Origin: Chamaesiphon sp.
GTDB lineage: Bacteria > Cyanobacteriota > Cyanobacteriia > Cyanobacteriales > Chamaesiphonaceae
Direction of reading: 5' to 3'
NCBI GenBank assembly: GCA_965246715.1
Contig: CBDFFH010000017.1
Location: 1-64,000, forward strand
DNA length: 64,000 bases
Part shown: in pieces, positions 32,130 through 36,817 of the stretch
Layout: each line of letters opens with the position of its first letter
How positions within the stretch are numbered: the first letter of the stretch is position 1
Translations under genes and position numbers: made by a program
Notes under the pieces: generated by a model
Databases searched by the model: none
Seen by the model: only the letters and a program-made list of their open reading frames with translations
Told to the model about the DNA's origin: nothing

Positions 32130-32559
32130 ATGTCCTTATCAAATGCTAGAGCCTTCGAGCTGCGAGTCGAACAGTCATTGGAACTCCGATCGCGGTTAGC
32201 ACAGATAAGATCGCCGATCGATTTGATAGCTCTCGCTCGAGAAGAAGATTTAGAATTAACAGCGGAAGACATGCGAGAAATCGCCCAAGGAGCTTACGGT
32301 GATTGGGTAGTAAAGCTCGAGCCTCCCGTGCGAAGTTTTTTCGATCGAGCACAGCAAACTGAGGCACTCAATCGCGAACTGAAACAGTGTCGATCGCTAG
32401 CAGATGCGTTGGCGAAGCCTACCGGAGGTAATCGACTTAGCTAACCGCAATGGCTTCGCACTGACAGCGAGCGATTTTCACCAAGCCGCAACCGCCGCCG
32501 CCACGATTCCCGGTTTTAGTTTTGAAAAGCTGTGGTTTAGAAACTTGGGGTTGCTATAA
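32130..32559 (+). pseudogene. Tandem Nif11-like domain protein, frameshifted by a 22-nt insertion
   Basis: Removing 32409-32430 restores a 135-aa ORF ending ...DAIDLANRNGFALTASDFHQAATAAATIPGFSFEKLWFRNLGLL*. Confidence 0.75.
32409..32430 (+). mobile_element. SDR5-like small element inserted in a HIP1-like site
   Basis: GCG|TTGGCGAAGCCTACCGGAGGTA|ATCGA; empty site GCGATCGA; TACC-GGA-GGTA mini hairpin. Confidence 0.78.
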
Positions 32560-35290: not shown

Positions 35291-35713
35291 GATTTACTCC
35301 TGTTTATCAGTCAAGCCTGCCATTCGATTGCGGATTGCGGATTGCAGCCGAGACGTTTCCTTAAGATTTATTATCTAACATTGACAAGAAAAGCAGGACG
35401 ACCATTTTGGGTAGATCGATCGATTGCGGATTGGGGATGATGTGTGCCGCAGACCTATGCCTTCGTTAAGATGATAAGAAAGTACTCACATCGTTCATTA
35501 GTGAATCATAATTAATGGATTGCGACAAAACTTACTAATGATTACTAAAACTAGTCACTGTCGTCAGGTAAGGTTCGAGCGTCACCGCTCTTACCTCATT
35601 AGAGTCGATGCCCGTGTTACCGCTCTTCCCTCGTCGGGTAAGGGAAGAAGCGTCACCGCTCTCCCCTCCCCTAAGAACTACGCATGAGAGTTTCCAGCTC
35701 ACGTAGCTCAAGC

Positions 35714-35926
35714 CTAACTTCTAGCCTTTGAAACTGGGTTTTTGGAATGTACCTGCTTGTGACAAGCTAAATGCACATGCTGTAGATTGTACTCGTCGTC
35801 AGTACCGCCTTGAGCAACAGGTAATATGTGGTGAGTTTCAATCTCTTCACCGTTTATTAAAGGCTCCCCGCAGATGGGACAAATCCAATTTTGATTTTGA
35901 GCTACTGAGTAATGTTTACTCCCTTT
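35714..35926 (-). pseudogene. HNH endonuclease domain remnant of the intron-encoded protein
   Basis: Translates KGSKHYSVAQNQNWICPICGEPLINGEEIETHHILPVAQGGTDDEYNLQHVHLACHKQVHSK...*, ending just before domain V. Confidence 0.88.
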
Positions 35927-36260
35927 AGATGCTATCTAGTTCAGCGATGGGCTTGGGTTCACACGATTCATAAATAAAGGAGTTATGAATCCGCCCATAA
36001 TATCCTGTCAGCCTTATTTGGATACCTACGTATCACGCCGTTTAATGATAGTTCACTTTCGTTCATCCTCCAAACTACGCATGACCGTTTCCGTATCACG
36101 TAGCTTTCCGGTAATTTTTACGTTTGAAGGCTTCACCATCGTAGCGTCCATATTGAATTTTCTCGTGGCATTGACGGCAAACCACTAAAGTTTTACGTCT
36201 ACGTGCCGACATTTTCTTCATCCATTCTGGACGTTCTTTGCATCCTTGTTGCTTAATATC

Positions 36261-36505
36261 GAACCCATTTGAGATCTTTTCAGTGGGTAGATGTAACAGC
36301 TAAACGTTTGAGCATGAGCCGAATAAAACACAGTTTGAGCTTGGCATTTGAACGTTTGAGTGTGCGGTCGAAATTTTTGACTAAACTTTTGCATCTCTCA
36401 ACCCAAGCATTCGAGCGGTCAATTACCCATCTGGCCGCAACAGGCACAAATCCAGATTGTCCTTTTACTTCCTTGTGAGCTTGAGAAGGTTTGGCTGAGA
36501 GTTTA
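36261..36505 (-). mobile_element. IS5-family transposase C-terminal fragment with right end
   Basis: GFVPVAARWVIDRSNAW..CKSLVKNFDR motif; end-like GAACCCATTTGAGATCT at 36261; left boundary approximate. Confidence 0.82.
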
Positions 36506-36817
36506 AACAATACTTGACTTATGTTCACCATTGGAAACTCCCCTTTGCTCCCTAACCAACTTAGGCTGTCAGTTTGGGTTACTTTCGTGGTCTGCACTCC
36601 ATCATTTTCATTATTTACTGGGGATGTGACCGGACTAATGTTAGTCTTTTACGCAGGGGTAGAGGGTATGAATCCTCTAGGGAAGTAGGCTTCCCGTACT
36701 AAACGACCATTTCAGGTCGCGCCACTAATCAACGAATCGCACCCTCCGGTAGGCTTCCCCAACGTCTGTTACTGCCGAAAATGGCTAGCATCTATCCAAA
36801 GTCGAAAAATTAAAGTA

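Follow-up and report, generated by a model that had tools for sequence, protein, structure and literature searches.

Does a group II intron home into one of the small dispersed repeats of cyanobacterial genomes? The question is raised by a single locus in the window, that is, the whole 64,000-nucleotide stretch of Chamaesiphon sp. DNA analysed here, where an intron start directly follows a copy of a repeat resembling SDR5. The match reported in the initial annotation of this DNA is real, as the minus-strand sequence 36764-36743 (CGTTGGGGAAGCCTACCGGAGG) is identical to 32407-32428 at 21/22 positions and is followed by GTGCG at 36742. SDR5 has been described as a tiny dispersed insert at a HIP1-type bond in Nostocaceae (PMC4390886, PMC5861425, PMC13756078). 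The repeat proper is 22 nt long (32409-32430) and lies between CG and ATCG; the 22-mer annotated initially therefore has the right core sequence but shifted bounds, since it carries two target bases and lacks the last two bases of the repeat. The same holds in part for its insertion site, which had been given as GCG^ATCGC: the bond is that of the CGATCG core, but the strict HIP1 octamer is relaxed here to NCG^ATCG, the left flanks of 63 repeat copies reading TCG in 39, CCG in 10, and GCG in 10. That the 22-mer is a mobile insert follows from the ungapped paralogous sites that are recovered when its flanks are joined, which was the case for 20/49 clean copies versus 6/200 mismatched joins (14 of the 63 copies were left out because their flanks were short or carried further repeats).

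The genome of the window contains 39 copies of the repeat at no more than one mismatch, and among 71 matches to its core the continuation is TAATCG in 59 and GTGCGA in the window copy only. Across the family, 748 intact copies are spread over 33 of 39 genomes. A single pattern matches both the 22-mer and 21-mers of Nostoc, the latter lying in GCG^ATCGC, and it finds 156 copies in one Nostoc genome, 142 in a second, and 18 in a record titled Chamaesiphon sp., with no copy in two others. The intron begins at the GGAGG^TA bond, where it would split the second hairpin of the repeat. A 150-nt contig from run X1, possibly the source sample, spans the junctions of exon, first intron stub, and following intron with 0 differences, and the chance of a junction falling at exactly this bond is about 6e-6 per junction in the genome of the window. 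On the other side, the 3' flank does not continue as TAATCG, as had been noted before; it derives from a different small element, of which one half is present, and it does not belong with the outer flank on the 5' side. A true 3' junction of the outermost intron with the repeat was found neither in the genome of the window nor in the fetched loci or five relatives.

Table 1. Features of the repeat-intron locus and of the intact reference repeat in the window
Feature	Position	Strand	Remarks
Intact reference copy of the repeat	32407..32434	+	CG + 22-nt element (32409-32430) + ATCG; near 3' end of Nif11-domain ORF
5' exon	36743..36764	-	target CG + element nt 1-20; C>G at 36758; cut at GGAGG^TA
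Intron X 5' stub, 20 nt, start GUGCGAUUC	36723..36742	-	identical to 119 starts of introns with an RT ORF
Intron A, 5' part of domain I, starts GCGCG	36500..36722	-	inserted at nt 20 of X; EBS1 lost
11-mer common to exon	36685..36695	-	arm and loop of a conserved intron A hairpin, same sense, no EBS
IS5-family transposase, 3' fragment	36261..36507	-	
ML-type intron, 3' piece	36067..36260	-	HNH tail and DV; ends GGAGG
Intron B, mid domain I	35925..36066	-	90% identity to the G212:C9 intron
Intron B EBS2 ACGUA and EBS1 CCUUUA	36031-36027 and 35980-35975	-	EBS1 within hairpin 35966-35990; pairing table
Intron B, HNH tail, DV and DVI	35633..35927	-	
Host-intron DVI stub (3' exon of B)	35598..35632	-	homologous to G212:C9 3' exon and G000:C43 DVI
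Second DVI stub, A/B-family type	35563..35597	-	
Small inverted-repeat element, right half	35485..35562	-	outer 3' flank; no relation to 5' exon

What follows the repeat is not one intron. BLAST against the genome and its relatives breaks 36742-35563 into pieces of several introns and an insertion sequence (Table 1), and the GTGCG start, the 11-mer, and the hairpin, which had all been ascribed to a single intron, come from three different ones. An intron other than A contributes the first 20 nt as a stub, because many relatives of A begin at GCGCG (36722); a 19-nt GTGCG stub precedes 7/28 junctions of the A type. Introns of the GTGCGATT type recurrently carry an A-type intron, either at nt 19-20 or at nt 39 (L205-L210, L005, L070, L076, L012). 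The ML-type intron, assigned to this class because its HNH match is AI2M-like, has five full copies elsewhere in the genome, every one within the DV of another intron; these copies (G000 contigs C2, C20, C34, C39, and C43) are near-identical, each standing after GAAACT in the DV of a different host, and the genome harbors several further intron nests. The small element at the outer flank has inverted ends CTCACATCTTG, and its copy at G000:C34:94938-95166 contains SDR-like repeats in a cluster. In a search for an empty orthologous site, the closest relative, G474 (97-99%), proved to lack the whole of 37111-35494. On its contig C3 (L244), the deletion takes the nest and part of a methyltransferase gene, the rest of which holds a palindromic mini-element. 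The anatomy of the nest fits the nested arrays attributed to recurrent homing and deletion (PMC4424553).

This mosaic bears directly on how the repeat might have been recognized. The initial annotation read 36742-35633 as a single intron whose hairpin at 35966-35990 was the EBS1 that reads the repeat. The hairpin exists (z -2.7, loop ACUCCUUUA), the loop can form 5/6 pairs with CGGAGG if two G-U pairs are allowed, and the proposal was plausible because a free duplex fold favors a shifted 4-bp pairing with the repeat (-6.7 kcal/mol versus -4.2 for the C43 site introduced below). However, the hairpin is part of a further domain I, located behind the insertion sequence and the ML-type piece, and belongs to the inner intron B, the target of which is the DV/DVI junction of other introns. 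In the closest relative of B, the G212:C9 intron, EBS1 CCUUCA and EBS2 ACCGU pair 11/11 with its own exon, which is the DV/DVI junction of a host intron. When the same register is applied, CCUUUA and ACGUA of B pair 6/6 and 5/5 with the host site at G000:C43, where the DVI end resembles the 3' flank of B in the window, whereas with the repeat they reach only 5/6 and 3/5. Intron B thus has guides matching a host-intron site and a homologous host DVI as its 3' exon, as in a nested array, and it is very improbable that one intron with this hairpin as guide accounts for the locus. The DV of the ML-type intron was also considered as the direct exon of B and rejected: EBS1 pairs with it, but EBS2 in the corresponding register does not, and the 3' flank differs from the ML DVI. 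As for the 11-mer, its recurrence at 36685-36695 stands but its role as a guide does not, as it is a piece of a hairpin of intron A in the same sense as the exon. It also occurs in a 94%-identical relative with an unrelated exon, its length depends on the mutated exon base (9 nt with the canonical repeat), and matches of at least 11 nt were obtained in 29/20,000 random windows.

The intron that touches the repeat is therefore X, the outer 20-nt stub. Its start GUGCGAUUC (36742-36734) is the IIB2 5' consensus (PMC4649490). In the window, the stub is without the RT/maturase ORF and the DV/DVI that its relatives possess, and its own EBS loops are lost. A search for the first 20 nt of X in 45 of the 64 parts of the genome collection, covering about two-thirds of the exact starts, returned 119 exact starts in 118 loci, continuing as AATC(A/T/C/G)CGG; the repeat was the exon of 0/119 of these starts. 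The idea that the intron family shares the repeat as its exon is not borne out by tabulating the exons, with 102 different exons among the 117 X copies that have a full 12-nt exon. An EBS1 hairpin was readable in 39 of the 119 starts, corresponding to 35 unique exons, and EBS1 tracks the exon copy by copy: 28/35 score at least 5/6 as compared with 6.6% of cross pairs, and the mean match was reached by 0/10,000 permutations. Against CGGAGG, no X-type EBS1 sequence read in the family gave a good pairing, 4.5/6 being the best score. Given the adaptation of EBS1 to the exon in each copy, a variant of X with guides for the repeat is possible; EBS divergence of this kind, on a smaller scale, has been reported to open new intron sites in Thermosynechococcus elongatus (PMC2882425). 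Across the family (L060-L177 and L309-L358, in records titled Nostoc, Microcoleus, and Chamaesiphon), the 5' region has a median identity of about 84%, and EBS1 (measured) and EBS2 (assessed by eye) vary almost from copy to copy, each matching its own exon. One genome, G290 (L312, L349-L353), contains six X-type copies with one exon, that is, a multicopy target other than the repeat.

Four sequencing runs were aligned to 36640-36800 at a likeness threshold of 88%, and the alignment tables and 30-letter loose ends were read. In all three runs from other studies (X3, X5, and X12, each from a different study), records match 36723/6-36764 with one to four differences and no gaps, six records with both stub and repeat being present among the matches listed. 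On the intron side, the loose ends in X3, X5, and X12 continue as uninterrupted X and not as intron A. Beyond the repeat, the outer flank differs from that of the window in X3 and also in X5, where three records disagree with one another (agreement 0.56); a single letter is visible in X12. The difference counts of these records are within the range given by variants of the canonical repeat. Over the variable part of the repeat, the summed depth in X5 falls from 220 to 107 to 60, which would agree with a single intron node that branches into several copies of the repeat, depth not being equivalent to copy number. Among the matches listed, no junction-spanning record has 31 letters on both sides, the best being one in X3 with 30 on the exon side.

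A further trace was found in an assembled genome. At G641:C200 (L185:1490-1530), a truncated topA-like gene contains a perfect repeat that ends in GTG where TAAT would be expected; the insert amounts to a net gain of 21 nt, in frame, and topA paralogues show the empty site. The GTG is probably the scar of an GTGCGATT intron, since deletion via CGATT, which is common with the 3' flank, would leave exactly these letters; the alternative is several point changes within four bases. Neither a DNA search nor tblastn found a native context for the right flank, which was resolved by the topA paralogues. GTG as a normal end of the repeat was considered and rejected, since among family copies nine have a non-T after AGG, with GAATC in three and GTGCG in one.

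Assembled genomes argue against a general link between repeat and intron, as junctions are rare. A repeat+GYGCG junction is present in 2/39 genomes of the family versus 748 intact repeat copies. Among 231 intron-like junctions, a number that includes chance motif matches, the repeat is upstream of one, the window's own. A scan of JGI metagenomes for repeat+GYGCGA gave 18 matches, none with the 5' half of the repeat or an intron, and viral contigs scanned in three ways for the junction gave 0. An order-wide pattern, placing an intron start no more than 14 nt from the first hairpin of the repeat, had no positive control because the window's own mutated copy could not match it; it returned five matches in 401 genomes versus four for the reversed control, with no repeat-intron junction among the five on inspection. 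An order-wide hairpin pattern yielded two introns among 27 matches, neither with the repeat as its exon. A plasmid match, H1, was rejected as a repeat-intron pair, since its exon is unrelated and pairs with H1's own EBS1.

In a rival explanation, an X intron with variable targets landed once in a repeat copy, or deletions joined the two, with no repeat-specific lineage involved. The variety of X exons agrees with such a single event, as do the many deletions at the locus with its mismatched outer flanks, the other repeat copies that are likewise cut or recombined near the GGAGG^TA point, and a chance expectation of about 0.1 repeat-adjacent junctions among the 231. A single event does not, however, readily account for the identical bond in other studies with different outer flanks, and probably also in G641, and we regard it as unlikely. 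Because the same bond recurs in X3, X5, and X12, with different outer flanks where these are visible, and because G641 carries a probable scar, we favor as the probable explanation that a sub-lineage of X uses the SDR5-like repeat as a retrohoming target, entering it at GGAGG^TA, and that the window copy then gathered introns and decayed. The original proposal of homing into a dispersed mini-element is in this way retained for the outer 20-nt stub X, where the metagenome contigs give the same bond, but not for the intron as it was described.

The EBS of this X sub-lineage, its 3' exon, and its mobility at the repeat are predictions. X would reverse-splice into a repeat copy using an EBS1 near CCUCCG or CCUACG and an EBS2 near GUAGGC, after which intron A would home into nt 20 of X. 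The ML-type intron would home into the DV, and intron B into the DV/DVI junction, of a host intron within the nest, and IS5 activity and deletions would remove most of the intron bodies together with the TAATCG that originally formed the 3' exon. In this view, the intron would parasitize the repeat, the spread of which would keep furnishing new sites.

A closer connection, in which the intron RT would serve the repeat as well by copying it into CG^ATCG sites, had also been suggested. Intron and repeat do co-occur at a single bond, SDR5 is described as having no known function (PMC13756078), and its insertion mechanism is treated as speculation in the available text of PMC4390886. On the other hand, the repeat shows no intron feature, and two relatives assembled in three contigs have 18 and 28 copies with no repeat-intron junction. 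The RT link is without support because the repeat is present in 26/26 genomes of the genus, with or without X-type introns (X-type domain I was matched in 17/26), and because intron insertion breaks the repeat; we consider this link highly doubtful. Equally hard to credit is its stronger form, in which the X sub-lineage homing there would be a dedicated partner of SDR5-like elements and its RT would supply the missing enzyme activity for placing copies of these 21-22-nt elements at HIP1 sites. Homing of X into the repeat leaves unexplained how SDR5-like repeats move.

Introns living in insertion sequences, terminators, and other introns are already known. In the open literature on group II intron insertion at HIP1 or repetitive extragenic palindromic sites, we found no description of an SDR5-like or HIP1-type intron target. 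If confirmed, an intron lineage aimed at a mobile 22-nt repeat would parasitize a mobile element that is among the smallest known and would have a self-renewing supply of many-copy landing sites; it would also offer a way to track SDR5-like repeats by sequence outside Nostocaceae.

Together, these data can be set against several known systems. The repeat works like the SDR5 of Nostocaceae, being a small dispersed insert at the CG^ATCG bond covered by one common pattern, but departs from it in two features, length and range. Judged against the Nostoc 21-mers found in GCG^ATCGC rather than against the published consensus, it measures 22 nt instead of 21 nt, and 18 copies occur in a record titled Chamaesiphon, whereas no SDR5 was found outside Nostocaceae according to the available text of PMC5861425. 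The site of SDR5 lies between nt 3 and 4 of GCGATCGC; the repeat occupies the same bond of the CGATCG core, to which its target is mostly confined here, with GCG on the left in only 10/63 copies. With regard to the nest, the arrays of Methanosarcina acetivorans and the Trichodesmium twintron likewise consist of introns homing into introns, offset by deletion and located in intergenic regions (PMC4424553, PMC4649490), whereas the nest described here is dead, interrupted by an insertion sequence, and has a mini-repeat as its outermost exon. The closest parallel to X in cyanobacteria is provided by TeI3/TeI4 of T. elongatus, IIB introns whose diverging EBS gave access to new sites and whose insertions occupy conserved positions within other introns or IS elements (PMC2882425). 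The target of X is, in contrast, a mobile micro-repeat of 22 nt that is neither, and EBS change in family X is nearly copy by copy as compared with six families in T. elongatus (PMC2882425). Finally, group IIC introns inserted after terminators also use a recurrent short genomic motif as a multicopy target (PMC12584367), but X is of the IIB2 type, and its family finds targets via EBS1/EBS2 pairing and not via hairpin structure.
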